Assembly (NCBI GenBank): GCA_963710815.1
Contig: CAVQCA010000022.1
Coordinates: 9,872 to 73,871 of the forward strand
DNA length: 64,000 nucleotides
Source of the DNA: an uncultured Gammaproteobacteria bacterium
Lineage (GTDB): Bacteria; Pseudomonadota; Gammaproteobacteria; UBA9214
Direction: 5' to 3'
Under the pieces are notes generated by a model. That model saw nothing but the letters and a program-made list of their open reading frames with translations. It was not told where the DNA came from and did not search any database. Numbering within the stretch: position 1 is the stretch's first letter; each line of letters opens with the position of its first letter. The translations under genes and the position numbers were made by a program. Of the stretch, positions 5,519 to 60,569 are shown piece after piece.

Positions 5519-5601
5519 TCACCGCAGAGTCACAGTGAACGCAGAGTGTTTTATTGTTTTCACTAAAGAATTTCTCTGCGTTCTTTGCGTCTTTGCGGTG
5601 A
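5519..5601. repeat. CGCAAAG hairpin element, 83 bp (28+27+28)
   Basis: Inverted arms TCACCGCAGAG.../...CTTTGCGGTGA around AT-rich spacer; begins 2 bp after lspA stop; outer-arm remnant to 5623. Confidence 0.9.
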
Positions 5602-5668
5602 AAAGATGTTCATCGATGCACACTAATTGTGGAAGTCTCGATAAGTCCGTAGCATCAAGGGGCGCGTT

Positions 5669-6121
5669 TTGATCAATGCTGTGATATATCCCATTGGCGC
5701 AGGCAGCACCGTGACCCTGCATCTGACACTCACCCTGGCGGACGGCACGGTCGCGGAAAGCTCGCTTGACGGTGAGCCGCATACCTTCACCATGGGTGAC
5801 GGGTCAATGCTGCACGGTCTGGAGCTGGCGCTCTACGGCTTGCGTCCCGGCGATACGCAGCGGCTGATGCTCCATGCAGAGCAGGCTTTCGGCAGGCGCG
5901 ACCCCGCCAGGATCCACTATCTGCCGCGCGCGGACTTTGCCGACGAGCTGGCGCTGGAACCCGGCCTCATCCTCGGGTTCACCACCCCTGAAGGCGATGA
6001 ACTCGCCGGGACCGTGTTGTCCTTCACGGCTGAAACCGTCGAGGTGGATTTCAACCACCCGCTGGCAGGCCATGCCCTGACCTTCGAAGTGAAAATCATC
6101 GATGTGATTCCCGGCGGATAG
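5669..6121 (+). CDS. fkpB: FKBP-type peptidyl-prolyl isomerase (SlpA/FkpB); start uncertain
   Basis: VTLHLTLTLADG, VEVDFNHPLAG; position between lspA and ispH. Confidence 0.92.
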   Translation: MINAVIYPIGAGSTVTLHLTLTLADGTVAESSLDGEPHTFTMGDGSMLHGLELALYGLRPGDTQRLMLHAEQAFGRRDPARIHYLPRADFADELALEPGLILGFTTPEGDELAGTVLSFTAETVEVDFNHPLAGHALTFEVKIIDVIPGG

Positions 6122-6153
6122 CGGTAAGCCGGTTGATGTTCACCGCTTGTTAT

Positions 6154-6362
6154 TCACCGCAGAGACGCAGAGGACACAGAGAGTCAATACGTCGTGAAAG
6201 ATAGATCAATGCAAAATATAATTGGATTATGTGCGGAAACTGCTTTCTCAACGCAAAGACGCAAAGACGCAAAGACGCAAAGTCGATTAATTGTTTTTGA
6301 AATAGATTTTCTTTGCGAACTTTGCGTCTTTGCGTTGAGTTGGTTCCTTTATGAACAGACAC
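6154..6362. repeat. Orphan CGCAGAG arm (6154-6181), full hairpin (6248-6338) and outer arm (6348-6362)
   Basis: TCACCGCAGAGACGCAGAGGACACAGAG; TCA(ACGCAAAG)x4 ... CTTTGCGTCTTTGCGTTGA; TTTATGAACAGACAC. Confidence 0.88.
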
Positions 6363-6384
6363 TGTCACACATGAATAATCATCC

Positions 6385-7318
6385 ATGCAAATCCTGCTAG
6401 CCAATCCGCGCGGTTTCTGCGCCGGTGTCGACCGCGCGATCGAGATTGTCGAGCGGGCGCTGGAACTGTTCGGCGCACCGATCTACGTCCGGCATGAGGT
6501 GGTGCACAACCGCCATGTCGTGGAGGGGTTGCGCGCGCGCGGCACGGTGTTCGTCGAAGAACTCGACGAGGTGCCGGATGATGCCACCGTCATATTCAGC
6601 GCACACGGCGTTTCACAAGCGGTGCACGAGGAAGGGGAGGGGCGACGGCCTGCGCGTATTCGATGCCACCTGTCCGCTGGTGACCAAGGTGCATCTTGAG
6701 GTCGCCGCCATGCCCGGGAGGGGCGCGAGTGTCGTCCTGATCGGCCACAAGGGACATCCGGAGGTGGAAGGCACCATGGGCCAGTACGATGGGTCCCTCG
6801 GCGGCGCCATGTATCTGGTCGAGACACCGCGGGATGTGGCGCAGCTGGTGGTGCGGAATCCGGACAATCTGGCGTTCGTCACCCAGACGACCCTGTCGGT
6901 CGATGACGCCGCCTCCGTCATCGACGGCTTGCGGAAGCGGTTTCCGCGGATCCAGGGACCGCGCAAGGATGATATCTGCTATGCCACCCAGAACCGGCAG
7001 GATGCCGTCAAGGCATTGGCCGGTCAATGTGATGTGTTCCTCGTGGTCGGCTCGCCCAACAGCTCCAACTCGAACCGGCTGCGCGAGATCGCCGAGAAGC
7101 AGGGCGTGGCGGCCTACCTCGTGGATGCGGCGGACGAGATCCGCCGGGAATGGGTGACGGGCAAACAGAGCGTCGGCGTCACTGCCGGGGCGTCCGCGCC
7201 CGAGGCCCTGGTCAACGACGTGGTTGAACGCCTGCGCGCCTGGGGCGGTGAAGTGGTGGAGGAGTTGCCGGGCCGCCGGGAGAGAGTGACCTTTTCGCTG
7301 CCGCGGGCGTTGCAGTAG
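6385..7318 (+). CDS. ispH: 4-hydroxy-3-methylbut-2-enyl diphosphate reductase; frameshift near 6635-6650, probably sequencing error
   Basis: [12 protein letters not shown] in one frame; [38 protein letters not shown] in the next; shift lies in a G-rich run. Confidence 0.93.
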
Positions 7319-7382
7319 CGGAGCCGGATCGATGTTAATGAGGCAACGACGGGAGGGTCACCGGGTAGTCATGTCACCAGCA

Positions 7383-7447
7383 CGTAGGGTGCGCCGTGCG
7401 CACCGCAGGTAGTGAATCCCAGTCCGGTGCGCACGGCGCACCCTACG
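7383..7447. repeat. GTAG-family REP doublet (REPIN-like)
   Basis: Perfect 23-bp inverted repeat CGTAGGGTGCGCCGTGCGCACCG, 19-bp spacer, between convergent ispH and pilE. Confidence 0.85.
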
Positions 7448-7504
7448 GGTGTAGGTATCCGGTTAGATTTTCCCGAAAGGGTGTGTGCGGTGTCGGCGTC
7501 CGGC

Positions 7505-7921
7505 CTATTTCCAGCAATCGCCGTCGGACAGCGGCCCGCTGACCGACTTGGTGCCCGTTGAGTCCAGCGTGAAGGTGCCGCATTTGTCGTTCGTCCTGCC
7601 CACCCTGCGGGGTGGCACTAACGGTAAAGGACGACGTTGGTCTGCGCTATCGATGCTTAGCATGTAATTTCCCTTGTCGGTCAGCTTATGGAAGATGTCT
7701 GCTGACGTCGTACCGAGCGTCGCACCGGCATAGGTGCCCTTGTCAGAGTAATAGCGCTCCAGCCGGTCCGCCAGCTCCAGCAGTTCACCCATACCCTCGG
7801 CGCGCCGCGACTTCATGACCTGGTCCCGGTAGGAGGGGTAGCCGAACGCGACGATAATGCCCAGGATCGCCACTACGATCATCGCCTCGATCAGGGTAAA
7901 GCCACGCATCATTCTGTTCAT
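7505..7921 (-). CDS. pilE: Type IV minor pilin PilE
   Basis: GFTLIEAMIVVAILGI prepilin motif, YPSY..V.KSRR, DKCGTFTLDSTG; apparent compensating indels near 7590-7640. Confidence 0.9.
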   Translation of the reverse strand: MNRMMRGFTLIEAMIVVAILGIIVAFGYPSYRDQVMKSRRAEGMGELLELADRLERYYSDKGTYAGATLGTTSADIFHKLTDKGNYMLSIDSADQRRPLPLVPPRRVGRTNDKCGTFTLDSTGTKSVSGPLSDGDCWK

Positions 7922-8023
7922 AGCAACCGTCCTGTTTTGCCTGCCTCCATGCCCCGGCAACGGGGCATGGCATCGGTTCTGAGCCTGCCCCGGCTGTTCT
8001 TGTCCAGCCAGGGCAGGGGTATC

Positions 8024-11000
8024 TCAATCGCTCAGGTCAATCCAGCTGCGCCGCCCGGCCGTGAGATTCGGGCCCAGGTGAACGTTGTTCGGATGACCTC
8101 GATTCAATCGTCGTCGCCGGTGAGCCGCGGGTGCCGAGCAGATCCTTGTCGATCGGCAGCAGGTGCTGCTCCGGCACGTGACCGGGGGCGTACCGGCGGT
8201 AGTGATCGTATTTCGCGAGGTCCGGGTTGTCCTTAAGCAGGTTCGCGAGATCTAACAGCGCCTGGTTGAGTTCGCCCTCGCTCGTGGCACCCTGTACCTT
8301 GTCAAGTGCTCGCACGTACTGCGAATACAGACTGTCCTGGTTCGAGGGGTCGCCAATACCGCTACCACAATCTTGGCCACCTGTACCTGTCGTCAGGCAG
8401 TCGTACTCGCCGTATGTCAAGCCGCCGAGTTCCTGCTTGAGCGCGCTGTTATAGCTGGAATCGCCGTAGCAGGGGATCGAGGCGGGGGGAGCACGACGCA
8501 GGTTGTCGGCCAGGTCGCTGTAGTGCCAGAACATGGTGAGCTCGTACAGCAGGCCGTTGTCTACGCCGCCGTTGTAAGCTTTGGTCATGAGCGTCGTGTT
8601 GTCAGTGTATGTCAGGATCACAGGGTTTTTGCTGCTCTTGGACGTGCTGAGTCTGAAGGCCCTCGCATACGTACCTCCGAAGCGTGTGCCGCCGCCGTTG
8701 GATACGGGCAGGGTGTTCGGATCCTGCAGGGGGCATTCGGTGTTGTCATAGTGGGCCGCTTGGCAATAAGTTCCCTGCTTAAAGTTGTCAACATCGATAA
8801 ACTGCACCGTCAGGGCGCCGTTGCGCCAGCGGTATTTGTTACCCTTTCCTTCCATGCTTTCGGTGATGTGCAGGTTGCGCGCCGGATCTCCTGACGTAGC
8901 CGACGGGCGGCGGCGGGGCTGGAGTGTTGTTCGAGCAGTTTGGGCTGCTGTAACTGTCCCAAGTAGTTGTTTCGGTGACGTCATATGAGAAGTCTGGCGC
9001 GTTGCTCAGCACTTGCTGATCCGTATAGCACACCGGGTCGCGGTAATCGTGCAGGCCCAGCACGCACTGCGAGCGTGTACCCACCACGCCGCCGTCGAGA
9101 ATGGACCGTTGGTTCAACTTCACCCGCACGCTGGGCGTACTGCCATCGCCACACTTGCCGTCGCTGCCGCCCGCCTTGGCGATGTCGTCCAGCGTGAACA
9201 CGAAGCCTGTATGGCCATCGAGTGTGAAGCTCCTCAAAGCACTTACAGGGTCGCCACTGGTCTCCAGTTTATTGGTGATCGTGTCCTCGTATTCAACCAC
9301 GGGCCAGCTGTCGCAGCCGATCTGCAGCTCCGCACTCGGGGAGAGATCGCCGTTGGCTACGACGATGATGAACTCCTTGTCGTTGGCAAGCCGCGTTGTC
9401 TGACCGCTGTTGCCGTAGACCTCGGATTCTGGCGTCGTTAGCGTCGTATCATAGGCGCGGTTGAGTTCGGGCACGACCGCCCCGATGCATCCGTCGCCCG
9501 CCACGACGCTGCCGCCGGGACAGACAGGGGGAGTGGTATCGGTGGCATTGGTCGTTGGAACGACGGGTGCGCCGATAAAGCTGGCCTTGCCGCGCCGGGG
9601 TTCCAGCCGGAACAGATCCACGTCAATGGTGTTGGTGACGGGATTGAAGAGATTGTTTGCGTCACTGTATTCGTGGAAGTGCCCGTCGACGGCGCCTCCC
9701 GCGCCATCGTGATCAGCCGCGGCCAACATGTCGTAGCCCTCGGTTTCGTCTACGTCACTTTGTGTTAAGGAGTAGTGTGGGGCGGCCGTACTGACGCTCG
9801 GCGCCATGGTGCCACCATAGGGGCTGTCCGTCTCCACGTCCAGATGGCCGTCAAGCAGTATGGGCGCAGGCTGGACCGGCAGGCGCAGGCCGTTGATGAG
9901 CATGATGTCCTGTCCCTGGCCCAGGCGGGCGATGTCCGGCTGGGAAATGTTGCCGTCGCCGAGCCCCACTCCGACGGGGAATTTGCCGCCGGTGTACTCG
10001 TCGCAGGCATCCAGCGACTGGTCGTGATTGGTGTTGAAGACAACTTCCCCGCCGTCGCCCCCGGTGAGGTAATCCAGGGACATCAGCCAGCTGGAGCCGG
10101 CTCCATCAGTCCCCGGGCCGCGTGTCACGACTGTCACGCGCCCGGCGCGAAGCTTGGGCGAACCCAGCACCTGTTCGTCAGCAGGCAAGGATACCCGCCA
10201 GCCTTTGGCTTTGGTGCATTGTGTCGGATCCTGACCCGTACACAGATAGTCGACCGAATTCGCGGTATCCATGTACCGGATGATATCGGCTGCCGGGGGG
10301 GTGGTGATCGTGCAGGGGGAGCTGTTGGTGAATGTCGGCTCGGTTGCATGCAGGGTCTGGTCGACGATCTTGGTTCCCGGGCCGCGGTCCCAGATGCCAT
10401 AGATGGCCTGCGGTGGATAGGTGTTCGCCGGATAGTTGGTCGACCCTCCCACTGATGCTGGATGGTGCCAGTGCCGAAGTAGACCATATAGCCGCCGTTT
10501 GGCTGGCTGCCGATTTCCGGTGCGGTGGTGATGGGTTGCAGCGGTGTTCCATCGGTGTCTATCTTGCCGGTGTATAGTTTGATCACCGTGTTATCGTGCA
10601 AATTGAAACGCCACATGTTGCCGCTGTCATCGCCGGCATAGGCGAAATCAACCACGCTATCACCGTCGGTGTCGACCAGCGTCGGGGCGGCGAGACCCTC
10701 TGCTACAGGTGCGCAAGAGGTGCCTTCGCAGGCGGATATTTTGGTCACGGTATAATCTTCCAGGCTGATGAGCAGCAGTCTGGCTTTGCCGCTGGTGCTG
10801 CCAAAACCGTTGCCGGTGACGATGTACCATTTGCCATTCGCCAGGCGGGCGATGGTCGGCGAGCCGTAGATATGGCCGATATCGGCGCCGGTCTTCTCGA
10901 ACAAGACCTTGTCGTTGCTGGCGTCCGGATTGGTGACATCCAGCGCGAACAGCCCCTTGGCGCCGGCTCCCAGGCCGCCGGTGAGCACGGTCTTCCAGTT

Positions 11001-12016
11001 CCCGCTTGTGGTGCCGACCTCGGCATCCGCGGCCGTCAGTTCACCGTCGACGAAGTAGGTGTGGACATAGGGAATGTTTTTCAGCTTGTCGAGCTTGCTC
11101 ACGGGCGGAGGCGGTGCAGGCGTAGTTGAGCCGGGATCGTAGTCCGGATCGACGATCAGCATTGACGGGATATAGGCATACACTTCGTCCCCGTTGGCGG
11201 CATCGAAGACATGCAGCATGCCGTCGTTGGCGCCCATGGCAATCCGTTTCTCTCGGCCGGCCTGGTCTGTCTTGAAGGCAGAAAAATTGTCGAAGTTGAA
11301 ATTTTCCGGCGGGTCGCCGATGTACACGGGGTTCGAATTGATAATATCGCCGAGCAGGCTGGAGCGGATGCGGTAGGTGCCGCCCGGGTTGCTTTTTTCG
11401 TTGCTGTGGTCGCCGCGGATGAAATTCAGTATCGGGCTTGCGGACAGCGTGTCGGTGAAGACACCGTCGCCATTAGGATCGTAAGCCGCGGGGTCCAGGG
11501 CCTGCTTTTGCGTGGCACTCAACCCGTTTGTGGCTTCCATCGGAAATTAACCTGGCGCAGGTTTGTCAGCGTAAGTATGTATAGATCGTTCCGTCCCGTA
11601 TCCCAGTAATCCGTATAGCTCGTACAATTTGTGTCAGCACACTCGTTTTTATAAAAGGTAGCGCGCGCCATCCAGTTGGTTCCCGTGGCCTCTGGTGGAT
11701 TGGAGCCTACTACCGCATCGGTGATCAGCTTGCCTGCCGAACCTGCCGGACAGGTCGTCGTGTCAGTGGGTGTTTGTCCGCAGAGAGTGTACTGGATGAG
11801 GTCACCCTGCCATGCACCGTTTTCTAACCATGGCGCATAGGCATGAACGCTGTCGCCCGACAGGTCCGTGCCGGACAGGGCATAAGGGGCGAGCGTTGTC
11901 GTCGGCTGCTCACTAATGGTGGTTTCGTTGATGATGAACGCCGCGTACAGGGCGGTGCTTATTACCACAATCGCAGCGGCAGCAATGAGGTAACGGCTCT
12001 TTATCTTCATTTTCAT
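8024..12016 (-). CDS. pilY1: PilY1/PilC-like pilus adhesin (~1330 aa), split over four ORFs by frameshifts
   Basis: N-terminal signal; LGDIINSNP, GANDGMLHVFDA, YFVDG, DTDGDSVVDFAYAGD, YFGTG propeller motifs; terminal GRRSWIDLSD* at 8024; located between pilX and pilE. Confidence 0.85.
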
Positions 12017-12034
12017 GACACGGTCTCCAGTGAA

Positions 12035-12598: not shown

Positions 12599-12613
12599 AA
12601 CTTGAACTCCGGC

Positions 12614-14300: not shown

Positions 14301-14302
14301 AT

Positions 14303-19716: not shown

Positions 19717-19801
19717 TCACCGCAGAAGAGCGCAAAGTACTCAGAGAATTACCCCCCAAAAACAACTAAATTCCCTGCCGTACTTTGCGTCTCCGCGGTG
19801 A
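19717..19801. repeat. Degenerate CGCAAAG hairpin element
   Basis: TCACCGCAGAAGAGCGCAAAG... / ...CTTTGCGTCTCCGCGGTGA between convergent typA and fimT. Confidence 0.8.
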
Positions 19802-34209: not shown

Positions 34210-34499
34210 ACGATCTCGGTACCATCTGTTGTCCTTGTCTCCTTGATGCGGCGCCCTGATCGATAGCTGCCATCCCTGTAGGCCGGCCGGTGCGGCAGAT
34301 GGTCTTGCGATCCTGGCCCCTAAGCCGCCTGGAAACGCCTCCAGTGGCTGTGCGGACTGCGCAGCGTGACCGTCGACAGCAAGACCGGGAACCGGTCGAG
34401 AAGCTGGTCTGGGTCATGCTGTCGACGAGCGTACAGGGAGGTATCCACACCGCAGCCACCACCACCGCTCCACCTATATGGGTGTCTGCGGTTTAAGGC

Positions 34500-34653
34500 G
34501 AATGGCGCTTACTTAAGTCCAAATCGTGATAAATAGCTACGGAATCCACGGAAAAACACAGAAATTATCTGATGAATATTCCGTGTTTTTCCGTGTGCTT
34601 CCGTGGCCATTTATTTTTTTATAATGACGATATCCCTTAAGTAGGCGCCATTC
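34500..34653. mobile_element. IS4-like MITE (154 bp) carrying a CACGGAA hairpin
   Basis: TIRs GAATGGCGCTTACTTAAG / CTTAAGTAGGCGCCATTC (17/18); direct repeat GGTTTAAGGC at 34490-34499 and 34654-34663. Confidence 0.9.
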
Positions 34654-34692
34654 GGTTTAAGGCGGGATTCCCCGGGTAAACGGCCTGGGGTA

Positions 34693-44822: not shown

Positions 44823-44867
44823 CTTCAGAGAGATGGTCGGTTTAGTATCCATTCACAAATACCTCTT

Positions 44868-44950
44868 TCACCGCAAAGACGCAAAGGACGCAGAGAAATT
44901 CTTTAATGAAAACAATTGATCGCTTTGCGTTCTTTGCGCCTTTGCGGTGA
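44868..44950. repeat. CGCAAAG hairpin element, 83 bp, between gatC and gatA
   Basis: Arms around spacer AAATTCTTTAATGAAAACAATTGATCG; outer arm GTATCCATTCACAAA from 44845. Confidence 0.92.
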
Positions 44951-45016
44951 GTGTATTTCCGTGGCAATTGACAGAGGCCTGGATTTCGTCAGTGTCCTTC
45001 GACTCAGAATCCATTT

Positions 45017-47947: not shown

Positions 47948-48009
47948 GTTTTACCATTGGTTCTGCATGTGGCCGGGCAGGCGTGTCCACTCTCGACCAT
48001 GGCTATCCA

Positions 48010-48139
48010 GTGTTCGTTCATAAACATCGTTTTCACCGCAAAGACGCAAAGTTCGCAAAGAAGGTCATTAACATAAACACATAATGGCTTTGCGTTCTTT
48101 GCGTCTTTGCGGTGAGTCAATTTCTTTATGGATAGCCAC
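48010..48139. repeat. CGCAAAG hairpin (48033-48115) inside an outer inverted repeat
   Basis: Outer GTGTTCGTTCATAAA ... TTTATGGATAGCCAC; inner 28+27+28. Confidence 0.9.
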
Positions 48140-48147
48140 TACCTACG

Positions 48148-49311: not shown

Positions 49312-49323
49312 ATCTCTACGGTA

Positions 49324-49448
49324 GGGCGCCTGCAGAAATAATCTCACCGCAAAGACGCAAAGAGCGCAAAGTCTTTAATTGTTTTCGTTAAAGAATTTCT
49401 CTGCGTCCTTCGCGTCTTTGCGGTGAAAGCGGTGTTATGGATGAATAC
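49324..49448. mobile_element. TA-flanked composite element containing a CGCAAAG hairpin (49344-49426), inserted in the moeB 3' end
   Basis: Reverse-orientation homologue of the 60440 element; TA at 49322-23 and 49449-50. Confidence 0.75.
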
Positions 49449-50207
49449 TATGTTTGACGCGGCGTGATCGCCGCAGACCGGGCAGTGCGGGTCACGTCGC
49501 AGCTTCAGCGTGCGCCATTCATGGACGGCGCCGTCGAAGACGACCAGGCGCCCGCACAGTGTTTCACCCAGTCCAAGCAGTACCTTGAGCGCCTCGAGGG
49601 CCTGCAGGCTGCCGATAATGCCCACGATCGGCGCAAGCACCCCGTTTTCGCTGCAGGTCTGGTCTTCCTGTTCACCCGCGTGGTACAGGCAGGCGTAGCA
49701 GGGGCTGTCATCCCGCCCCGGAAGAAACACGGCGATCTGGCCTTCGAGGCGCACGGCCGCACCCGAAACCAGCGGCGTGTGATGTGCGACGCAGGCGGCA
49801 TTCACCGCGAAGCGGGTTTCAAAGTTATCGCTGCAGTCCAGCACCACATCCGCACTCGCGACTTCCTCTTCAAGTCGGTACCCCTGCAGGCATTCTGTGA
49901 TCGGGGTGACGCGAACGTCGGGGTTGATCATCGCCAGTGTGTCGGACGCCGAGGCGACCTTTGGCCGTCCGATGTCGCTCTGGTGATGCAGGATCTGGCG
50001 CTGCAGGTTGGACAGTTCCACCCGGTCCGGGTCGGTGATGACGATCTGCCCGACCCCGGCCGCGGCCAGGTAGATGGCGGCCGGAGAGCCCAGGCCGCCG
50101 GCGCCGATCAGCAGCGCGCGTGAGCCGAGCAGGGTGTCCTGACCCGCGACATCGACCTGCGGCAACAGGATCTGCCGGCTGTAGCGCAATAACTGGCTGT
50201 CATCCAT
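49344..50207 (-). CDS. moeB: MoeB/ThiF adenylyltransferase; C-terminus extended by the repeat
   Basis: RYSRQILL, GAGGLG, SNLQRQ, DCSDNF, CYAC, CPVC. Confidence 0.93.
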   Translation of the reverse strand: MDDSQLLRYSRQILLPQVDVAGQDTLLGSRALLIGAGGLGSPAAIYLAAAGVGQIVITDPDRVELSNLQRQILHHQSDIGRPKVASASDTLAMINPDVRVTPITECLQGYRLEEEVASADVVLDCSDNFETRFAVNAACVAHHTPLVSGAAVRLEGQIAVFLPGRDDSPCYACLYHAGEQEDQTCSENGVLAPIVGIIGSLQALEALKVLLGLGETLCGRLVVFDGAVHEWRTLKLRRDPHCPVCGDHAASNIVFIHNTAFTAKTRRTQRNSLTKTIKDFALFASLR

Positions 50208-50240
50208 CGCAGTTACAGGTCCATCCACAAACAAATGAAC

Positions 50241-50325
50241 TCACCGCAGAGACGCAAAGAGCGCAGAGAATCCCCTGATAAAAAAGCAATTAATTACCTC
50301 TGCGTGCTTTGCGTCTCTGCGGTGA
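50241..50325. repeat. CGCAGAG hairpin element, 85 bp, with outer arms (about 50218 and 50335-50349)
   Basis: TCACCGCAGAGACGCAAAGAGCGCAGAG / CTCTGCGTGCTTTGCGTCTCTGCGGTGA. Confidence 0.9.
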
Positions 50326-50361
50326 ATGAGGGTGTTTATCGACGGATACTGCCTGGATTCC

Positions 50362-51968: not shown

Positions 51969-51984
51969 AACGGCGCCTGCGGGG

Positions 51985-53073: not shown

Positions 53074-53094
53074 GGGATGCCAGCGTGCGGCGAT

Positions 53095-54354
53095 TCAATC
53101 GCCATCCTTCAGCCGGAACAGTGTACGGACGGTTTCGAGCAGGAAGGTCTGACCCTGCTCGACGGCCGAACGCAGGTTGACGCTGGGGTCATGGGCGAGT
53201 TTGTTGATGAGGTTATGGGCGAGCAGTTCGACCACCTGCCGGGGGTCCTCTCCGTTGACAAGACGCTGGCGCGCCTTTTTCAACTCGACCTCGCCGACGG
53301 CCTGGGCATGGTCGCGGTAGGCGCGGATGGCGGGGACGGCATCCAGCGAGTTCAGCCAGATCATGAACCGGTCGACCTGCGCATCGATGATCTCTTCGGC
53401 CTGTTCGGCCGCCTCCCGGCGCGACTTGAGGTTTCCCTCGATGACCTCCTTGAGGTTGTCGATGGTGTAGAGGTACACGTCGTTGAGTTCATCTACCCGT
53501 GGGTCGATGTCGGGGGGGACGGCGATGTCGACCATGAAAATCGGACGGTGTTTGCGCCCGCGTATGGCGTCGCACACCATGTCCCTGTCGAGGATATAGT
53601 CCGGGCTGCCGGTGGAGGAGATCACGATATCGGCCTGGTCCAGGTGCGCGGCGATCTGGGATAGCGCGATCCCGAAGCCGTCGAATAGAGTCGCCAGATC
53701 GAGCGCACGTTCGACCGTGCGGTTGGCGATGATCATCTGGCCGATGCCGTGTTCATGCAGGTGGCGGGCGGCGAGTTCGATGGTCTCGCCGGCGCCGATC
53801 AGCAGTGCCGTCTGTTTCTCGAATGCCCCGAAGATCTGCCGGGCCAGGCTGACGGCCGCGAAGGCGACCGAGACCGGGCTTGCGCCGATGGCCGTATCGG
53901 TGCGGATTTGCTTGGCGACCGAGAAGGTATGCTGGAACAGGCGGTTTCCCAGGGCATTCAGGGTGCCTGCTTTGGTTGCCATCTGATAGGTGGTTTTCAT
54001 CTGCCCCAGGATCTGGGGTTCCCCGAGGATCATCGAGTCCAGGCCGGCCGCCACACGGAGTATGTGGCGCACGGCGTCAGCCCCCGAATAGGCGTACAGA
54101 TGGGGTTCCAGCGCACCCTTATCCAGCCCGTGAAACCGGCTCAGCCACTCCGTCACTTTATCCAGCCCCCCATCCTGTTTGGCGCAGTACAGCTCGGTGC
54201 GGTTGCAGGTCGACAGGATGGCCGCCTCGCTCACGTTCTCCACCGCTCTCAGTTCGTTCAGGGCGCGCGGAAGCTGCTCGGCCGGAAACGCCACCTGCCC
54301 GCGAATTTCCACGGGAGCCGTCCGGTGATTAATGCCGAGGACCAGCAGGTGCAT
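53095..54354 (-). CDS. hemA: Glutamyl-tRNA reductase
   Basis: GINHRTAP, STCNRTE, GEPQILGQ, GAGE. Confidence 0.97.
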   Translation of the reverse strand: MHLLVLGINHRTAPVEIRGQVAFPAEQLPRALNELRAVENVSEAAILSTCNRTELYCAKQDGGLDKVTEWLSRFHGLDKGALEPHLYAYSGADAVRHILRVAAGLDSMILGEPQILGQMKTTYQMATKAGTLNALGNRLFQHTFSVAKQIRTDTAIGASPVSVAFAAVSLARQIFGAFEKQTALLIGAGETIELAARHLHEHGIGQMIIANRTVERALDLATLFDGFGIALSQIAAHLDQADIVISSTGSPDYILDRDMVCDAIRGRKHRPIFMVDIAVPPDIDPRVDELNDVYLYTIDNLKEVIEGNLKSRREAAEQAEEIIDAQVDRFMIWLNSLDAVPAIRAYRDHAQAVGEVELKKARQRLVNGEDPRQVVELLAHNLINKLAHDPSVNLRSAVEQGQTFLLETVRTLFRLKDGD

Positions 54355-54496
54355 AATGGTTAAATAAAAAATGTCGAAGAATCTTAAAATTCTGCATGGT
54401 GAGGTGACTTAATACAAGCGGCGCCCCGTTTTGATCTCAATTGCACCCAACCTGGCCTGATGAAATTACAACTAATTTATTGGACAAACTGCTAGA

Positions 54497-56257
54497 ATGC
54501 CGCGCATGTATCTAGATGAAATACTCGGGCCCGGTTCACGACCGCGCGCCTGGCTGCTGATTCTGACTGTCTCGATCCTGACGGCCTGTGCCCATCCCGG
54601 TGGCAAGGGCGCCGTGCGTCCTGAGCCCCAGGTGCCCGCCGCCCACGCCAAGTCGCCGGCCGCCAATCCGGAATCACTGACCGATCAAACACTGTTCGAC
54701 ATTCTGATGGGTGAAATCGCCGCCCAGCGGGGACGGCTCGACGTGTCGGCCACGCATTATCTGCAGGCCGCGATGAATTCGAACGACCCCCTGATCGCCG
54801 AGCGCGCAGTACAGATTGCCACATTCGCCAGGCAGTACGAAATCGCCCTGAAGGCGGCGCGCCGCTGGCTGGCGCTCGACAGCGGCAATGTCGAGGCGCG
54901 CAAGGTGGTTACCGCGCTGGCTCTGAAGGTCGGCGACATGGACGAGGTGGTCGAGCAACTGGATCATATCATCACGGCATCAAACGACCGCCAGCAGGGC
55001 TTCCACCTCGCGACGGTCATTCTGGCCCAGAATACGGACAAGAAGATCGCCCTGGGGGCCATGGAAAAGCTCGCTGCACGTTTTCCCGACAGCGTCGATG
55101 CCCGGCTCGCGGTCTGCCGGATCGCCATCCTGGCGCAGGACATGGGTCGGGCGCAGACAGCGATCGATCAGGCGCTGCAGATGCGGCCGGGTGATCCGCA
55201 GGCTCTGATTCTCAAGGCGCAGATCCTGATCAGCCAGGACAGGAAGCCGCAGGCCATGAAGGTGCTCGAGGAGGCGGTCGCCCAACACCCGCGGAGCGCC
55301 GACCTGCATCTCGCCTATGGGCGGATGCTGCTCGATGCCGATAACGTGAAAGGCGCCAGGGAACAGTTCCGTCTCGTGGTGAAGCTCGCGCCCGGCAATA
55401 CCGACGCGATTTATTCACTGGCGTTGCTGGAACTGGAAACCCGTCAGCTGGACTCCGCCGAACGGCACCTGAAACAGCTGCTTGGCGTGGAAGACAAGCG
55501 TCAAAGCGCCTATTACTACCTCGGCTACGCGGCGCAGGAAAAAGGCGATAACAGCGCAGCGATAAAGTGGTTTGGCAAGGTCGATGAGGATAGCGAATAC
55601 TGGACCCAGTCCCGACTGCGCATGGCGAAAATCCTCGCCGGGGAGGGGAAGCTCGATGAGGTGCGCAAGGAGATGCAGGCGCTGCGTCGGGACAATCCGG
55701 AAAATGCCGTCGAATATTACCTGGTCGAGGGGCAGGTATTGTCCGACCTGGCGAAGTACCAGGAGGCCTTCGACCTTTACGCCGAGGCGCTGGAGGGCAA
55801 CCCCCGGGATGAGGACCTGCTCTACGCGCAGGCGCTGACCGCCGAACAGCTCGGTCGCGTCAGTGTCGCCGAGAAATACATGCGGCAGATTCTCAAGCAG
55901 GATCCGGACAACGTAAAGACGCTCAACGCCCTCGGCTATACCCTGGCCGACCGCACCAACCGTTACGCCGAGGCGCAGAAGTATATCGAGAAGGCCTATG
56001 CGAAGAAACCCGACGATCCGGCCATCATCGACAGCATGGGTTGGCTGCAGTATCGGCTTGGCCACCTCCAGGAGGCGCGGCGCTACTTGCAGAAGGCCTA
56101 TGACAAGACCGGCGACGCGGAAATCGGCGCGCATCTCGGTGAGGTCCTGTGGATGCTGGGAGACCATGCGGGCGCGCGCCGGGTGTGGCAAGAGTCCCTC
56201 AAGGCGGCACCCGATGATCCGGTTCTCAAGAAAACCATCAACCGCTTCAAGCCGTGA
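54497..56257 (+). CDS. TPR-repeat lipoprotein
   Basis: LTAC lipobox, TPR patterns, LNALGYTLADR, IIDSMGW, AHLGEVLW; upstream of lolB. Confidence 0.9.
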   Translation: MPRMYLDEILGPGSRPRAWLLILTVSILTACAHPGGKGAVRPEPQVPAAHAKSPAANPESLTDQTLFDILMGEIAAQRGRLDVSATHYLQAAMNSNDPLIAERAVQIATFARQYEIALKAARRWLALDSGNVEARKVVTALALKVGDMDEVVEQLDHIITASNDRQQGFHLATVILAQNTDKKIALGAMEKLAARFPDSVDARLAVCRIAILAQDMGRAQTAIDQALQMRPGDPQALILKAQILISQDRKPQAMKVLEEAVAQHPRSADLHLAYGRMLLDADNVKGAREQFRLVVKLAPGNTDAIYSLALLELETRQLDSAERHLKQLLGVEDKRQSAYYYLGYAAQEKGDNSAAIKWFGKVDEDSEYWTQSRLRMAKILAGEGKLDEVRKEMQALRRDNPENAVEYYLVEGQVLSDLAKYQEAFDLYAEALEGNPRDEDLLYAQALTAEQLGRVSVAEKYMRQILKQDPDNVKTLNALGYTLADRTNRYAEAQKYIEKAYAKKPDDPAIIDSMGWLQYRLGHLQEARRYLQKAYDKTGDAEIGAHLGEVLWMLGDHAGARRVWQESLKAAPDDPVLKKTINRFKP

Positions 56258-56260
56258 GAA

Positions 56261-56890
56261 ATGCGGGTTAGGAGCCTGGCGCTTTCCCTGTTGCTGACAC
56301 TGGCGGGTTGTGCAACCCAGCAAGCGCGTGAGGCAGCGCCCACGGCCCTCGACCTCGCTTCACCACAGTATGCCCACTGGCAGATCAAGGGTCGGGTGTC
56401 GCTGAGCAAGGACAAGCAGGGATGGCATGCCAGCCTCGACTGGCGTGAGGATGCGGGGCACTATCGTCTGGACCTGAGCGGCCCGCTGGGACAGGGCGCA
56501 GTGCGCGTCGAGGGCGACAGCGCGGGCGTCAGGCTGCAGACGGCTGACGGGCGCGAGTACGTCGCGCAGGATGTGGACACCCTGGTGCAATCGGTGACGG
56601 GCTGGCGGTTCCCCGTGGCGGGTATCCGCTACTGGGTGCGGGGTGTCCCGGTACCCGGGAAAGTGGCGATGATCACCACCGACAGTAATGGACGGCTGGT
56701 TCGCCTGGTGCAATCCGGCTGGGACATCACCTATGAGCGCTTCGAGGATCAGGGCGGACGTGCCTGGCCAACCCGCATGAGCATGACCACGAAAGATATC
56801 AGAGTGCGCCTCGTGGTCGATGAATGGACACTGGGCGATGTACCGCATGAGGCATCGCCGAAGGCGGTGTCCGGTCCTCCACCAACATGA
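56261..56890 (+). CDS. lolB: Outer-membrane lipoprotein LolB
   Basis: LAGC lipobox, LSGPLGQG, YWVRGVP, QSGWDITY. Confidence 0.92.
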   Translation: MRVRSLALSLLLTLAGCATQQAREAAPTALDLASPQYAHWQIKGRVSLSKDKQGWHASLDWREDAGHYRLDLSGPLGQGAVRVEGDSAGVRLQTADGREYVAQDVDTLVQSVTGWRFPVAGIRYWVRGVPVPGKVAMITTDSNGRLVRLVQSGWDITYERFEDQGGRAWPTRMSMTTKDIRVRLVVDEWTLGDVPHEASPKAVSGPPPT

Positions 56891-57780
56891 GCAGGCCGGT
56901 GATCCCGGCCGGTGCGCTGGGACCCTGGCCGGCGCCGGCCAAGCTCAACCTGTTCCTTCATATCACCGGGCGGCGTGATGACGGTTATCACACCCTGCAG
57001 ACGGTTTTCCAGTTTCTGGACCATGCCGACCAGTTATCCTTTTCCCTTCGCTCCGACAACGCGATTCACTGCTTCGGCGGCCCGCCCGGGATGCCTGTCG
57101 AGAAAGACCTTTGCGTGCGCGCCGCCCGCCTCCTGCAGGAGGCGGCGGGTATCGGAAAGGGTGTTGATATCTATAATGAAAAACGACTTCCCGTCGGCGG
57201 TGGTCTGGGCGGGGGAAGTTCCGACGCGGCCACCACCCTGTGGGTGCTGAACCGGTTGTGGGGTGCCGGACTGGAACCGGCTCAGCTGGCCGATCTTGGA
57301 CTGCGTCTGGGCGCCGACGTGCCGGTGTTTCTCTTCGGACGGGCGGCCTGGGCGGAAGGTGTGGGTGAACTGCTGACCCCGGTTGATCCGCCGCGGCCCT
57401 GGTACGTGGTGGTCAACCCGGAGGTAAGCGTCTCAACGGCCGCTGTATTCTCAGATCCTGAATTGACACGGGACAGTTCACGGATGACAATACGCGACTT
57501 TCCTTCGAGCGGTGGACATAATGACTGCGAAGCCGTTGTCAGGCGCAGGTATCCCGCCGTCGCGGCGGCGCTCGATTGGTTGAACCGGGCTTCACCGGCG
57601 CGTATGACCGGCACCGGGGCCTGTGTGTTTGCGGCCTTCGCCTCGCAGGCACAGGCACAGGCGGTCGAGCGGAGGGTACCCGCCGGATGGACCGTTTTTG
57701 TCGCCCGCGGGCTCAACCGCTCGCCCCTGCACGAGGTGGCGGAGAGGGATCGCGTCGGCATCACGCGAGCGTCGCATTGA
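56887..57780 (+). CDS. ispE: CDP-ME kinase
   Basis: PAPAKLNLFL, GGGLGGGSSDAAT, LGADVPVF, MTGTGACVF. Confidence 0.97.
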   Translation: MSRPVIPAGALGPWPAPAKLNLFLHITGRRDDGYHTLQTVFQFLDHADQLSFSLRSDNAIHCFGGPPGMPVEKDLCVRAARLLQEAAGIGKGVDIYNEKRLPVGGGLGGGSSDAATTLWVLNRLWGAGLEPAQLADLGLRLGADVPVFLFGRAAWAEGVGELLTPVDPPRPWYVVVNPEVSVSTAAVFSDPELTRDSSRMTIRDFPSSGGHNDCEAVVRRRYPAVAAALDWLNRASPARMTGTGACVFAAFASQAQAQAVERRVPAGWTVFVARGLNRSPLHEVAERDRVGITRASH

Positions 57781-57788
57781 GAGATTAT

Positions 57789-57863
57789 TGGGACGTCGCC
57801 AAGTGGTAAGGCACGGGGTTTTGATCCCCGCATTCGCAGGTTCGAATCCTGCCGTCCCAGCCA
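57789..57863 (+). tRNA. tRNA-Gln(TTG)
   Basis: TGGGACG acceptor, CGGGG-TTTTGAT-CCCCG anticodon arm, GGTTCGAATCC, CCA. Confidence 0.97.
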
Positions 57864-58043
57864 GCACGACCAGCGCCGCAGGCGCTGGTTTGAAACAGGC
57901 GGACGGCGGGATGAGAACCTCAAGGTTCGACTCGAGCGCGCAGCGCGAGAGAACGGCGGGAGCGAAGCGGACGCCGGCCCCGCAGGGGCGAGGGGCGCAG
58001 GCCCGAGTAATCCTGCCGTCCCGGCCAGCACGACCAGCGCCGC
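57845..58043 (+). repeat. tRNA 3'-end duplication, 35-bp direct repeat with 164-bp period
   Basis: AATCCTGCCGTCCC(A/G)GCCAGCACGACCAGCGCCGC at 57845-57879 and 58009-58043 (34/35). Confidence 0.9.
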
Positions 58044-58102
58044 GGACGCGGTGATGGCCGGTAACACTAACCGATTTCGTTGACTGCGAAACAGAGTGGA
58101 TT

Positions 58103-59077
58103 ATGAAGGGGTTGCCTGTGGCGGTTGATGATGGGCGGATGATGGTGTTCACCGGCAACGCCAACCGCAAACTGGCGCAGGACATCGTGAACCAGCTGCG
58201 CCTGAATCTGGGCAACGCGGTTATCGAACGATTCAGCGACGGTGAGGTCCACGTCGAGATCATGGAAAACGTGCGCGGCCGGGACGTCTTTATCGTCCAG
58301 CCGACCTGCGCGCCGACCAATGACAACCTGATGGAGCTGCTGGTGATCATCGATGCCCTGCGGAGGGCCTCGGCCTGGCGTATCACCGCCGTGGTCCCGT
58401 ACTTCGGTTACGCGCGCCAGGACCGCCGCCCGCGCTCGGCGCGGGTGCCGATCACCGCCAAGGTGGTGGCGCAGATGATCAGCACCGTGAAGGCCGACCG
58501 GGTGTTGACGGTGGACCTGCATTCCGAACAGCTTCAGGGATTTTTCGATATCCCGGTGGATAATGTGTACGCCTCGCCGATCCTGCTGGGCGATATCTGG
58601 CGGCAGAAACACCCGGATCTGGTAGTGGTCTCGCCCGACGTCGGCGGTGTAGTCAGAGCGCGCGCGCTGGCCAAGCGGCTGGATGACGCCGATCTGGCGA
58701 TCATCGACAAGCGCCGGCCCAAGCCGAACGTGTCCAAGGTGATGAACATCATCGGCGAGGTTGAAGGGCGCAGTTGCGTCATGATCGACGATCTGGTCGA
58801 TACCGCCGGCACCCTGTGCCGGGCCGCCGAGGCGCTGAAACACGAGGGAGCGAAACGGGTGCTTGCCTATTGCACCCATCCCGTACTCTCCGGCAGGGCG
58901 GTGCGGAATATCGAGGAATCGGTACTCGATGAGCTGGTGGTGACCGACACCATACCCTTGTCGGAGAGCGCGCAGGCCTGCGGGCGCATCCGCCAGCTGA
59001 GTATTGCCGCGATGCTCGCGGAGACCATGCGCCGCGTCAGCATGGAAGAGTCCGTCAGCTCGATGTATATGGATTGA
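58103..59077 (+). CDS. prs: Ribose-phosphate pyrophosphokinase (true start may be slightly downstream)
   Basis: [36 protein letters not shown]. Confidence 0.98.
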
Positions 59078-59142
59078 CGCATGGTTAAACACGGACGCAT
59101 CCCGGCGGCTCGTCAGGCCCCGGGACGCGTCCGTACCCTGTC

Positions 59143-59162
59143 TTCGCCTGGTCGCGGGTGAA
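59143..59162 (+). promoter_or_regulatory. Possible L25 leader hairpin
   Basis: TTCGCC-TGGTCGCG-GGTGAA hairpin upstream of rplY; resemblance to the gammaproteobacterial L25 leader is from recall. Confidence 0.4.
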
Positions 59163-59205
59163 GACGAAACCCGCGCCGCAAGGCGTTTTTTTCCGGAGAT
59201 GAAAC

Positions 59206-59865
59206 ATGGCAGTCAGCTTTGAACTCAATGCGGAGCCGCGTAACGACATGGGTAAGGGTGCGAGCCGCCGCCTGCGTCGTGCCGGCATGGTGCCCGCCAT
59301 CCTGTATGGTGGCAATGATGAACCCCGGGCGATTACCCTGATTCACAACCAGTTGCTGCGCAATCTGGAGCACGAGGCGTTCTATTCCCACATTCTCACC
59401 GTCAACATGGGTGGTACGGGTACGCATGCGGTACTACGCGACGTGCAGCGCCATCCCAGCAAACCGACCATCCTGCATGTCGACCTGCAGCGCATCAGCG
59501 CGATGGAGAAACTGCGCATGCATGTGCCCCTGCACATCATCGGTGAGGACATTGCACCGGGCATCAAGCTCGGCGGCGGTATGGTCATGCACGAACTCGT
59601 CGAAGTGGAAATCGAGTGTCTGCCCCAGGATCTGCCGGAATACATCGAGGTGGATATCTCCACACTCGAAGTGGGCGACGCACTGCACCTTTCGAATTTG
59701 AAGGTTCCGCAGGGTATGACGCTGGTCGAGCTGGCCCGTGGCCCGGACCATGACCTCGCCGTGGTGTCGATCCACGCCCGTCGTGGCGGCGGTGAGGATG
59801 AGGTCGCCGCCCCCGTCGCCGAGGACGGATCATCCGCCGAAGGTTCAGGCTCGGCCAAGCCTTGA
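59206..59865 (+). CDS. rplY: 50S ribosomal protein L25/Ctc
   Basis: [40 protein letters not shown]. Confidence 0.97.
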
Positions 59866-60440
59866 CGGCGATCCGGCTCGTCGCCGGGCTGGGAAACCCC
59901 GGGACAAAGTACCAACAGACCCGGCATAACGCCGGGTTCTGGTTCGTGGACGAGGTCGCGCGCCGCTATGCGGTCCGGTTTCGCACCGAATCCCGCTTTG
60001 CGAGCGAGGTGGCCAGCTGCCAGATCGACGGACAGGAATGCCGCCTGCAGAAACCGCAGGATTTCATGAACCGCAGCGGTCGGCCGGTGGCTGCGCTCGC
60101 CGCGTTTTACCGCATTCCGCGTCCCGCCATTCTCGTGGTGCACGATGATCTCGACCTGCCTCCCGGTACGGTGCGACTCAAGCAGGACGGTGGTCACGGC
60201 GGACACAATGGCCTGCGTGACCTGATTCCCAGTCTCGGCGGCAATGATTTCCTGCGGCTGCGTATCGGCATCGGGCATCCCGGTCATCGTGACGACGTGA
60301 TCGGCTACGTGCTCAGACCCGCCACGCGGGAAGAGCAGGCGGCCATCGAGGCGGCCATCGAGGCGGCGCTCGGGGTGTTGCCCGCTGTCATTACCGGCAA
60401 CCTGGAAGCCGCCATGAAGGTGCTGCATACCGCTAGATAG
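59862..60440 (+). CDS. pth: Peptidyl-tRNA hydrolase
   Basis: [37 protein letters not shown]. Confidence 0.97.
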
Positions 60441-60569
60441 TGTCTGTCCATAAACACCGTTTTCACCGCAAAGACGCAAAGGACGCAGAGAAATTCTTTA
60501 ACGAAAACAATTAAACACTTTGCGCTCTTTGCGGCTTTGCGGTGAGTTTATTTCTTTATGGATGGCCAC
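60440..60569. mobile_element. Composite MITE: outer TIR plus CGCAAAG hairpin (60463-60545)
   Basis: GTGTCTGTCCATAAA / TTTATGGATGGCCAC (12/15); flanked by TA (extendable to TAGATA) on both sides. Confidence 0.8.

Follow-up and report, generated by a model that had tools for sequence, protein, structure and literature searches.

Gene-less heptad hairpins at housekeeping gene junctions of a gammaproteobacterium: probable MITEs with insertion sequence ends and a core related to the GxxExxY cassette

The MITEs of bacteria that are derived from insertion sequences (ISs) include the Correia/NEMIS elements of Neisseria and ERIC. The hairpins analyzed here are like these elements in being short, noncoding, and present in high copy number, in having the TIRs of a full-length IS and a fixed target duplication, in their insertion polymorphism, and in folding into a long hairpin. 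They differ in their interior, which is not an IS remnant but a separate 83-bp module, built of heptads, with its own origin. As REPINs do with RAYTs, the dispersed hairpins coexist with a low-copy-number gene flanked by the same repeat, but the gene here is for a nuclease of the PD-(D/E)XK type rather than for a Y1 transposase, and the copies are bounded by IS ends and target duplications. A third comparison is with the 23S rRNA intervening sequences. In the account of these given in PMC4990558, the ORF-bearing members have an S23p (PF05635) ORF in the loop of a terminal stem of ∼28 bp that is cut by RNase III; what they have in common with our elements is an inverted-repeat stem of ∼28 bp whose loop may or may not contain a small ORF. 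Our elements have other heptads, and all eight hairpins lie between protein genes and none in a 23S rRNA helix. In relatives of the study genome, PF05635 ORFs do occur between arms of tandem heptads, and in genome G009 one such element is inside a 23S rRNA gene. A fourth comparison is with the GxxExxY cassette (TIGR04256/PF13366 PDDEXK_3; function unassigned), which has the same arms, TCAC plus three C[GA]CN[AG]AG heptads with linkers of 1 and 1 to 2 nt; the eight hairpins differ from it in having no gene and in having acquired IS ends. We found no published account of the hairpin family or of the GxxExxY arms in the literature. An earlier note on this DNA had considered that the hairpins might prove to be an already described repeat with a known transposase; the transposase family is indeed known, but the repeat itself was not found described.

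The window, by which we mean the whole 64,000-nt stretch of DNA that was analyzed, contains eight paired-arm units, which begin, as first reported, at positions 5519, 6248, 19717, 44868, 48033, 49344, 50241, and 60463. When recomputed, their lengths were 83, 91, 85, 83, 83, 83, 85, and 83 bp, so that five of the eight are exactly 83 bp, the number given before. An inverted-repeat search returned the units at 5519, 44868, 48033, 49344, and 60463 with arms of 28 to 29 nt that are 83 to 93% complementary and are spaced 27 nt apart. Four units have the common spacer AAATTCTTTA.YGAAAACAAT that had been described, in the forward orientation at 44868 and 60463 and as the reverse complement at 5519 and 49344. 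The arm motif TCAMCGCARAGRCGCARAG, allowing ≤1 mismatch, gave 17 matches in the window versus 0 in 100 shuffles. Many further copies had been foreseen, and a search of the whole genome (4.04 Mb in 158 contigs) gave 126 paired forward/reverse arm clusters plus 62 that were unpaired. Genome-wide, the loops were most often 27 nt long (n = 36), followed by 28 nt (n = 17), 29 nt (n = 8), and 26 nt (n = 7); thus, the suggestion that loop length is constrained is true as a description, but common descent of the copies explains at least part of it. The size that had been assigned to the repeat unit, 83 to 91 bp, proved too small, because conservation runs about 24 to 25 nt past each arm and the element is 132 bp long.

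An intact copy consists, from the outside inward, of 17-bp termini (AGTGTCCGTCCATAAAC and AGTGTCCGTCCATAAAG) with 7 to 8 linker bases, two 28-nt arms, each made of TCAC and then three CGCARAG heptads with 1- and 2-base separators, and a central AT-rich 27-nt loop. Termini of the AGTGTCCGTCCATAAA type are present at both ends, and outside them the information content drops to background. The two outer blocks, A and B, are unlike, and therefore the element has polarity. By the threshold that we set, 40 of 70 copies had both blocks, 13 had A only, 9 had B only, and 8 had neither. The terminal blocks matched the genome 137 times, and in 116 of these cases a heptad arm followed within 30 nt. Copies of exactly 132 bp (n = 17) had a median identity to the consensus of 90.9%, with a maximum of 97.7%. 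No hairpin copy had an ORF of its own; the overlapping ORFs were all read-through from neighboring genes.

The outer 17 bases of the element match both ends of a 1.7-kb ISNCY-family (ISRm17-like) IS from the same genus. In the study genome (G000), this IS lies at positions 8080 to 9764 of contig C152, where it is bounded by the 16- to 17-nt termini of the element and has a transposase that matches NF033593 in two pieces. Because this is the only copy in the assembly, is at a contig end, and has a split transposase, the genome offers no evident active source. A congener, G001, has three copies of 1,687 to 1,693 bp, two of them with an intact 473-amino-acid ORF. The IS transposase scored 469 bits against NF033593 (cutoff, 325), and its nearest annotated relatives are ISRm17-family ISNCY transposases with ∼64% identity, annotated on Sinorhizobium plasmids. 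The IS was not found in congeners G003 and G004, although both carry the hairpin element. In the IS copies of this genus, whose ends were the ones compared, the termini (17 bp) and the duplication (4 bp) equal those of the hairpin element; the eight copies differ from the ISNCY/ISRm17 group in having no transposase.

When the 4 nt before and after 41 full elements were compared, the successive positions agreed at 23, 29, 31, and 16 of the 41, and 7 elements had perfect duplications; in six shifted registers, agreement was only 5 to 18 of 41. Among the IS copies, one has the duplication ATTT/ATTT and two others match at 3 of 4 positions. Because the outer 17 bases match the IS and the 4-bp duplications are as in the IS, we are fairly confident that the eight hairpins are copies of a gene-less MITE of ∼132 bp. 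These sequence features also suggest that an ISNCY-family transposase probably moves the copies in trans. The earlier note had instead taken the hairpins to be nonautonomous derivatives of the GxxExxY cassette, but, as far as movement is concerned, the termini and the 4-bp duplication belong to the IS.

The best-preserved copy is between pth and ychF (60435 to 60574, + strand). Here the 132-bp MITE occupies 60439 to 60570, with matches to the A and B ends of 23/24 and 23/25, respectively, and the hairpin at 60463 to 60545; a 4-bp duplication, AGAT, flanks it (60435 to 60438 and 60571 to 60574). Congeners G001 and G004 have an uninterrupted, base-exact empty site, and the study genome exceeds them by 136 bp, equal to the element plus its duplication (132 + 4). 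A second full 132-bp MITE lies between gatB and pdxB (48009 to 48140, + strand; hairpin, 48033 to 48115), with an A end of 21/24 and a B end of 20/25; the site is occupied in G003 and G002 but not in G001. The copy before gatA (44844 to 44975, + strand; 83-bp hairpin, 44868 to 44950) has an A end of 17/24 and a degenerate B end, which adjoins a remnant of a CACGGAA-type element; in the congeners, this gap has CACGGAA-type hairpins instead. Two copies are in the inverted orientation (− strand). One is between pdxB and moeB (49323 to 49449; hairpin, 49344 to 49426) and is absent in G001, where the gap is 46 bp versus 169 bp. The other is upstream of moeB (50216 to 50350; 85-bp hairpin, 50241 to 50325) and is absent in G001 and G003; in the inverted-repeat search, its arms continued through the IS ends and reached 49 nt.

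The remaining copies are less complete. At the lspA-fkpB junction is a truncated copy (5519 to 5624, − strand) whose 83-bp hairpin (5519 to 5601) begins 2 nt past the lspA stop codon; it has an A-type IS end on the right but lacks the left outer end, and the site is short or empty in all four congeners. The copies at 6248 and 19717 are atypical. The former (6248 to 6363, + strand) has a 91-bp hairpin of a TCAAC variant with four heptads in the left arm and a B-type IS end (20/25) on the right only; it probably recombined with an older resident hairpin. The latter, a degenerate 85-bp hairpin after typA (19717 to 19801, no strand assigned), has barely recognizable outer ends and is absent in G001 (102 bp versus 265 bp). 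There are also "naked" hairpins that have no IS ends. One of these left a solitary older arm, TCAC CGCAGAG A CGCAGAG GA CACAGAG, at the fkpB-ispH junction (6154 to 6181, + strand), where G001 and G003 have both arms, with a loop of ∼120 to 130 nt and no IS ends, and G002 has none; others are remnants between ribF and ileS. Congeners have copies at other sites, and occupancy varies among them at most sites. Because there are empty sites, occupancy is not invariant; invariant occupancy with no empty sites was a finding that the earlier note had named as refuting its reading.

A ninth arm pair in the window, 1614 to 1641 and 2134 to 2161, encloses a GxxExxY gene (1753 to 2133), forming a gene-bearing cassette at the ribF-ileS junction (1614 to 2161, + strand). 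Its left arm is TCAA plus three CGCAAAG heptads, it has no IS-type outer ends, and the gene matches the profiles TIGR04256 (E value, 1.6e-43) and PF13366 (5e-43). A GxxExxY cassette is found at the same junction in relatives from three genera; this cassette is old and vertically inherited, and it is decaying in place rather than excising cleanly. The proposed kinship of the hairpins with the cassette does hold for the core: the arms are the same, TCAC plus three heptads, and the loop resembles the inner loop of a congener's cassette. In that cassette (locus L013 of G001), the order is arm, 25-nt loop, reverse arm, gene, and reverse arm. None of 35 long-loop copies was like the cassette interior. 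Judged by these sequence likenesses, the inner 83 bp of the MITE is a module from this lineage's GxxExxY (PD-(D/E)XK nuclease) cassette.

The cassette architecture is widespread. Arms bracket 51 of 75 testable homologous loci by a strict test (48 to 51 of 75 with TCAC plus three C[GA]CN[AG]AG), and at least three copies of one heptad are present in the flanks of 74 of 80 loci. The architecture recurs in no fewer than 14 named phyla, including one of archaea, and the family is large: 7,979 of 8,000 scored candidates passed an E value of 1e-5. In the study genome, a second GxxExxY paralogue is flanked by CACGGAA-type heptads, and the other paralogue is flanked by the CGCAAAG type. Each type has a gene-less population, consisting of 126 arm pairs (CGCAAAG) and 78 hairpins (CACGGAA). 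Across the phylum, gene-less triple-heptad hairpins were detected in 40 of 301 genomes (IS ends were assessed in the study genus).

We propose that the IS transposase would move the element in trans, making the 4-bp target duplications, and that the hairpin core would be a passenger between the IS ends. Copies would then persist for the most part where housekeeping genes on the same strand are separated by short gaps, presumably because insertions are tolerated at such places. In a transcript, the 28-bp stem with its imperfect pairing might act like the stems of the 23S intervening sequences, on which RNase III acts according to the account in PMC4990558. A further possibility is an action like that of REP hairpins, which are barriers at 3' ends. 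A second, unrelated MITE shell in the genome also encloses a heptad hairpin, in this case with the heptads found beside the second GxxExxY paralogue; given two such captures, a pure passenger model is insufficient.

An unlikely alternative, although the one that fares best, is that the GxxExxY nuclease recognizes the heptads, that the single-copy gene maintains or spreads the gene-less hairpins, and that the IS ends are secondary. The residues D68, E78, and K80 are invariant among 12 GxxExxY sequences. Arms agree with each other at 953 of 1,008 cells at heptad positions but at only 51 of 122 at linker positions, and all three heptads are identical in 55 of 96 arms. Such identity within an arm is not required by base pairing alone; the heptads, and not the base pairs, are the conserved unit. 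Consistent with this reading, each of the two GxxExxY genes in the genome has a heptad type of its own, each type has a gene-less population, and PF05635 cassettes use other heptads, implying that each cargo family has its own vocabulary. Among the 301 genomes, 26 had both hairpins and gene, 14 had hairpins only, 27 had the gene only, and 234 had neither (odds ratio, 16). However, the co-occurrence comes mostly from one family (f46) and so is not phylogenetically independent, and two genomes (G278 and G238) have many hairpin matches and no detected GxxExxY gene. In addition, heptad type tracks the protein tree no more strongly than it tracks the host phylum, the copies bear IS termini and an IS-type duplication, and the ribF-ileS cassette is inherited vertically without clean excision. 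A broader version strikes us as equally doubtful: tandem-heptad inverted arms may serve a large class of selfish cassettes, so far undescribed, as a general code specific to the cargo. A small protein of the cassette (either the GxxExxY nuclease or, in 23S intervening sequences, the four-helix-bundle protein) would then read the heptads that belong to it, whether as DNA or as RNA. Hairpins without a gene would remain substrates of the single-copy gene, as REPINs are of RAYTs, and the two types in this genus would have joined different IS-derived shells as a second route of spread.

Less probable still is that the hairpins are retained for an effect on operon transcripts, namely, termination, processing (by RNase III), or stabilization. 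In keeping with the position inside operons that the earlier note envisaged, copies are mostly between same-strand genes (46 of 64 classifiable copies, with 13 in convergent and 5 in divergent gaps), whereas ∼35, 13, and 15, respectively, would be expected from intergenic length (chi-square P = 0.007). But purifying selection on selfish insertions would equally yield avoidance of promoter gaps. In tandem gaps, 27 copies were in the sense and 14 in the antisense orientation (P = 0.06), and in the sense orientation a U-rich run follows the stem. Folding was far better than that of shuffled sequences on both strands (z = −5.8 to −9.1). Intrinsic terminators have a short G+C-rich stem, a 3- to 8-nt loop, and a T run; here the loops are 27 to 29 nt, and a simple terminator model fit none of the copies between 44000 and 61000. 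An Rfam search of the window at the gathering score returned only three tRNAs and one RtT and gave no match to the hairpins. The pairing of CGCAAAG and CGCAGAG variants across arms that had been pointed out is real in some copies (e.g., at 50241), but many cells are G·T or A·C. These mismatches numbered 71 G·T versus 53 A·C in the MITEs and 17 versus 23 in the gene cassettes; there is no strand bias, and thus they give no support to an RNA stem. In ∼10 of 52 copies, the loop is inverted within the shell. The unlike occupancy among congeners also argues against host selection.

It is extremely improbable that the hairpins are REP/BIME elements of the classical kind, which rely on a RAYT transposase. 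They are short, palindromic, intergenic, and of high copy number, and the genome has five matches to PF01797 (Y1 transposase), but a search of 1.5 kb to each side of the three best Y1 loci found no heptad arms. The copies also have inverted termini of the IS type and are flanked by target duplications, features that REPs are not known to have.

As MITEs with a recognizable IS partner, the eight hairpins are ordinary, and their interest is in the core. It links a very large, unstudied protein family to one fixed DNA architecture, and the presence of the heptad architecture around the ORFs of 23S intervening sequences makes the purpose of those ORFs and stems directly testable. The genus is a convenient system, having two nuclease genes with two types of heptad and an abundant gene-less population of each type. 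The copies also affect annotation: more than 100 of them fragment assemblies, and they can change gene ends, as at 49323 to 49449, where the moeB reading frame enters the copy and its stop codon is the first three bases of the element.

The eight hairpins described in the earlier note were all found, at 5519-5601, 6248-6338, 19717-19801, 44868-44950, 48033-48115, 49344-49426, 50241-50325, and 60463-60545 in the window; their lengths are 83, 91, 85, 83, 83, 83, 85, and 83 bp, respectively. An inverted-repeat search gave arms of 28 to 29 nt, 83 to 93% complementary and 27 nt apart, in five of these copies, and the arm motif proposed in that note, with at most one mismatch, matched 17 times in the window versus 0 times in 100 shuffles. 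The hairpins are real and well past chance expectation. The prediction of many more copies genome-wide also held. A motif search of the window's own assembly (4,041,197 bp, 158 contigs, 59.4% G+C) gave 172 left and 168 right arm ends, which formed 108 pairs at spacings of 50 to 200 bp, 31 of them exactly 83 bp; a looser census found 126 arm clusters that were paired and 62 that were not, with loops of 27 nt in 36 copies, 28 nt in 17, 26 nt in 7, and 29 nt in 8.

When the flanks were aligned at the arm boundary, conservation extended about 24 to 25 bases outside each arm. One flank, block A, reads ...AGTGTCCGTCCATAAACACCGTTT, and the other, block B, reads ...AGTG.CC.TCCATAAAGAAATAAAC; outside these blocks the information content was about 0. 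Among the 70 copies with flanks, and with a block scored as present if at least 10 of its 15 inner bases agreed, both blocks were present in 40, only A in 13, only B in 9, and neither in 8. The complete unit was exactly 132 bp in 17 copies, whose median identity to their own consensus was 90.9% (range, 50.0 to 97.7%); conservation in these copies was 89 to 90% in the arms, 85 to 89% in the termini, 82% in the loop, and 78 to 81% in the linkers. The 132-bp unit had no match in annotated plasmid or phage collections.

Terminal blocks without adjoining arms made up 21 of the 137 in the genome, and screening these revealed an insertion sequence (IS) with the same ends. This IS (G000:C152:8080-9764 in the window's own genome) is 1,685 bp long and has perfect AGTGTCCGTCCATAAA termini at both ends, which read on as ...AAAG and ...AAAC, matching blocks B and A, respectively. 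Its DDE transposase is split in two, and the parts matched NF033593, "ISNCY family" (6.2e-54 and 1.1e-77), as well as DUF772 and DDE_Tnp_1. Three further copies, 1,687 to 1,693 bp long, are present in the congener G001, and two of these carry an intact 473-amino-acid transposase open reading frame (ORF) (469 bits versus a cutoff of 325), one of them at L111:1527-2948. The closest annotated proteins, encoded on Sinorhizobium plasmids and about 64% identical, carry the name "ISNCY-like element ISRm17 family transposase." A literature search on ISRm17, ISNCY, and MITEs gave nothing relevant by title.

The tetranucleotides flanking the IS copies were ATTT/ATTT, ATTT/AATT, and ATTT/AGTT. For the 132-bp unit, unoriented or commonly anchored ends gave a weak and confusing duplication signal; anchoring each end on its own terminus made the signal clear. 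The 4 nt before and after the element agreed, position by position, in 23, 29, 31, and 16 of 41 full elements (a list that counts one locus twice, with alternative ends, and includes two apparently duplicated contigs), versus 5 to 18 of 41 in six shifted control registers. Seven of the 41 had perfect 4-bp duplications.

Occupancy also varied between congeners. At 60463 the site is exactly empty in the congeners G001 and G004 (...cataccgcCACGTagggtgcgcc...) and filled in the window's genome (...cataccgcTAGAT[132 bp]AGATaaggtgcgcc...); the anchors stand 5 bp apart in the former versus 141 bp in the latter, and the difference, 136, is 132 + 4. At 5519 the gap is 31 to 67 bp in all four congeners versus 160 to 199 bp, and the G001 alignment agrees. 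The element at 49344 is missing in G001 and present in G002 and G003, that at 48033 is present in G003 and G002 and not in G001, that at 50241 is absent from G001 and G003, and that at 19717 is absent from G001. The gap corresponding to 44868 holds hairpins of another type, built from CACGGAA, in all four congeners. Copies of the 132-bp unit are abundant elsewhere in the congener genomes. Only 60463 among the aligned junctions gave a base-exact boundary, the congener junctions at 48033, 49344, and 50241 being too diverged for this at about 80 to 85% identity. The IS ends, the 4-bp duplication, and the empty sites together establish that the hairpin copies are miniature elements (MITEs) derived from an IS and polymorphic for insertion.

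At one site the insertion touches a gene: the moeB frame (minus strand; 49344-49470) enters the MITE and stops at the element's first three bases. The moeB of G001 ends about 50 bp earlier, in unrelated sequence, and therefore the insertion replaced the C-terminal tail. We also noted a palindromic repeat, GTAGGGTGCGCCGTGCGCACC plus its complement, that recurs in intergenic gaps of the genus (7383-7447 in the window; junctions in G004) and that directly adjoins the MITE insertion site at 60571.

The earlier note had regarded the hairpins as nonautonomous derivatives of the GxxExxY cassette. In the window this cassette lies between ribF and ileS, with arms at 1614-1641 and 2134-2161, a 126-amino-acid ORF identified as the GxxExxY protein (TIGR04256, 1.6e-43; PF13366, 5e-43), and no A or B blocks. 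The sole paralogue in the genome is 46% identical, and its arms follow the same design with CACGGAA as the heptad. The comparison set was 80 homologous loci in named records that span many phyla. Matching heptad arms were present on both sides at 51 of 75 testable loci by a strict test, and at least three occurrences of one heptad were present in the flanks at 74 of 80; A and B blocks were absent from all foreign cassettes examined. Complete 3+3 arms occur at 48 loci, where the two arms agreed at heptad positions in 953 of 1,008 cells and at linker positions, with linkers of 1 nt and 1 to 2 nt, in only 51 of 122. Three identical heptads made up 55 of these 96 arms, and there were eleven leading heptad variants.

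The cassette is found between ribF and ileS in G001, L013, G005, G009, and G015, representing three genera; in G002, G013, and G014, only remnants of its arms are left. The G005 locus (L098) has 11 tandem heptads on the left and 2 on the right; therefore the arrays grow and shrink, presumably by slippage. In G001/L013 the order is arm, 25 nt, partial reverse arm, gene, and reverse arm. The 25-nt stretch resembles the MITE loop, matching its consensus at about 21 bases by eye, and its mean alignment score against MITE loops was 7.5 versus 4.6 ± 1.8 for shuffled loops. If a deletion joined the two reverse arms, which are in direct orientation to each other, exactly arm-loop-arm would remain. The match in arm design and inner loop upholds the cassette as the origin of the hairpin core; as an account of how the hairpins move, descent from the cassette is incomplete, given the IS-type ends and the 4-bp duplication.

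A codon-model gene caller chose an antisense ORF at 1774-2028 over the GxxExxY gene at 1753-2133, a choice that hints at atypical codon usage in that gene and would fit a foreign origin. Two G001 contigs, C9 and C10, carry different versions of the ribF-ileS-lspA region, one with a 2.1-kb insertion after lspA, which fits two strains and the 7% contamination figure of that assembly.

A one-strand RNA stem gained no support from arm mismatches, folding of both strands, or loop inversion. Heptad positions were nearly always paired in the 52 MITE copies that were oriented, with frequent A.C or G.T cells at arm positions 12, 20 to 21, and 26; the mismatches had no strand bias (71 G.T versus 53 A.C). 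Nor was there a bias in the arms of gene cassettes, where 55 heptad mismatches comprised 17 sense G.U, 23 antisense, and 15 neither. Both strands of three full copies folded equally well (z, −5.8 to −9.1). Relative to the outer blocks, the loop was reverse complemented in about 10 of 52 copies genome-wide; therefore the core can flip inside its shell, as expected if flipping occurred via the inverted arms. The mismatch, folding, and loop data speak for the heptad as the unit that is conserved in the arms. A terminator scan listed no hairpin copy. An RNA run contained 0.07 of the sampled words, and contigs from it stack on repeat copies at 90 to 95% likeness, which leaves transcript ends and strand unreadable. 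An Rfam scan of the window matched tRNAs and RtT only and no hairpin copy; the RtT RNA match, at 57890-58027, directly follows a tRNA gene and scored 52.8 bits versus a gathering score of 45.

A second MITE family, with ends GAATGGCGCTTACTTAAG, encloses a hairpin of triple CACGGAA (34493-34660 in the window; G000:C145:54259-54573), the heptad that also brackets the genome's second GxxExxY paralogue; there are 78 such hairpins genome-wide. There are two different IS-derived shells, each with one heptad type. Genome-wide, 35 copies of the first family have long loops, of 84 to 280 nt, that hold other nested small repeats, among them the CACGGAA MITE (4 copies) and REP-like palindromes, and their interiors lack GxxExxY remnants. 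Other small repeats seem to land preferentially in the AT-rich loop. Three arm-to-arm spans of 1.1 to 1.7 kb, considered as possible cargo, were instead ordinary genes between separate elements.

In a sample of 301 genomes from the phylum, a pattern for gene-less triple-heptad hairpins matched in 40, and a backwards-read control pattern matched in none. By far the most matches, in counts that include overlapping ones, were in the window's own genome. PF13366 was present in 53 of the same genomes: 26 had both hairpins and gene, 14 hairpins only, 27 the gene only, and 234 neither (odds ratio, 16), but because most positives came from one family this co-occurrence is not independent evidence. ORFs of PF05635 ("23S rRNA IVS protein") in G028, G001, and G009 also have tandem-heptad arms, made of other heptads, and the copy in G009 lies inside a 23S rRNA gene (RF02541, 1,535 bits). 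In one published case, an ORF occupies the loop closed by the 28-bp terminal stem of an intervening sequence, and RNase III cuts this stem (PMC4990558). The MITE core is part of a widespread cassette class of which we found no published description in the literature searched: four arm strings had no match, the papers retrieved for GxxExxY did not treat arms, and the function of PDDEXK_3/PF13366 was given as "Unknown."

The GxxExxY protein has no sequence relative in the PDB. Its fold model was confident (pLDDT, 87.8) and resembles only generic minimal PD-(D/E)XK cores; D68, E78, and K80 were invariant in a 12-sequence alignment. A Foldseek search with the model gave a best E of 0.027, and VIA gave a best Z of 7.8, common to Cas4 SSO0001, a restriction-endonuclease-like protein, and BpuSI, with Hjc at 5.2 to 6.3; matches this weak do not allow an enzyme class to be assigned. 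On the protein tree, heptad type changed 32 times versus 47.3 ± 1.7 for shuffled labels, and host phylum changed 31 times versus 46.5 ± 1.9. Because phylum is structured as much as heptad type, the tree gives no ground for claiming protein-heptad cospecificity.

Positions relative to genes were taken from a home-made codon-model caller (3,668 calls, 78.6% coding). The 70 copies fell into tandem gaps (46), convergent gaps (13), divergent gaps (5), called genes (2), and contig edges (4), versus shares of 55% tandem, 21% convergent, and 24% divergent expected from intergenic length (chi-square P = 0.007). Orientation within tandem gaps was 27 to 14 (P = 0.06). The window copies lie at the lspA-fkpB-ispH junctions, after typA, before gatA, at the gatB-pdxB-moeB junctions, upstream of moeB, and between pth and ychF.
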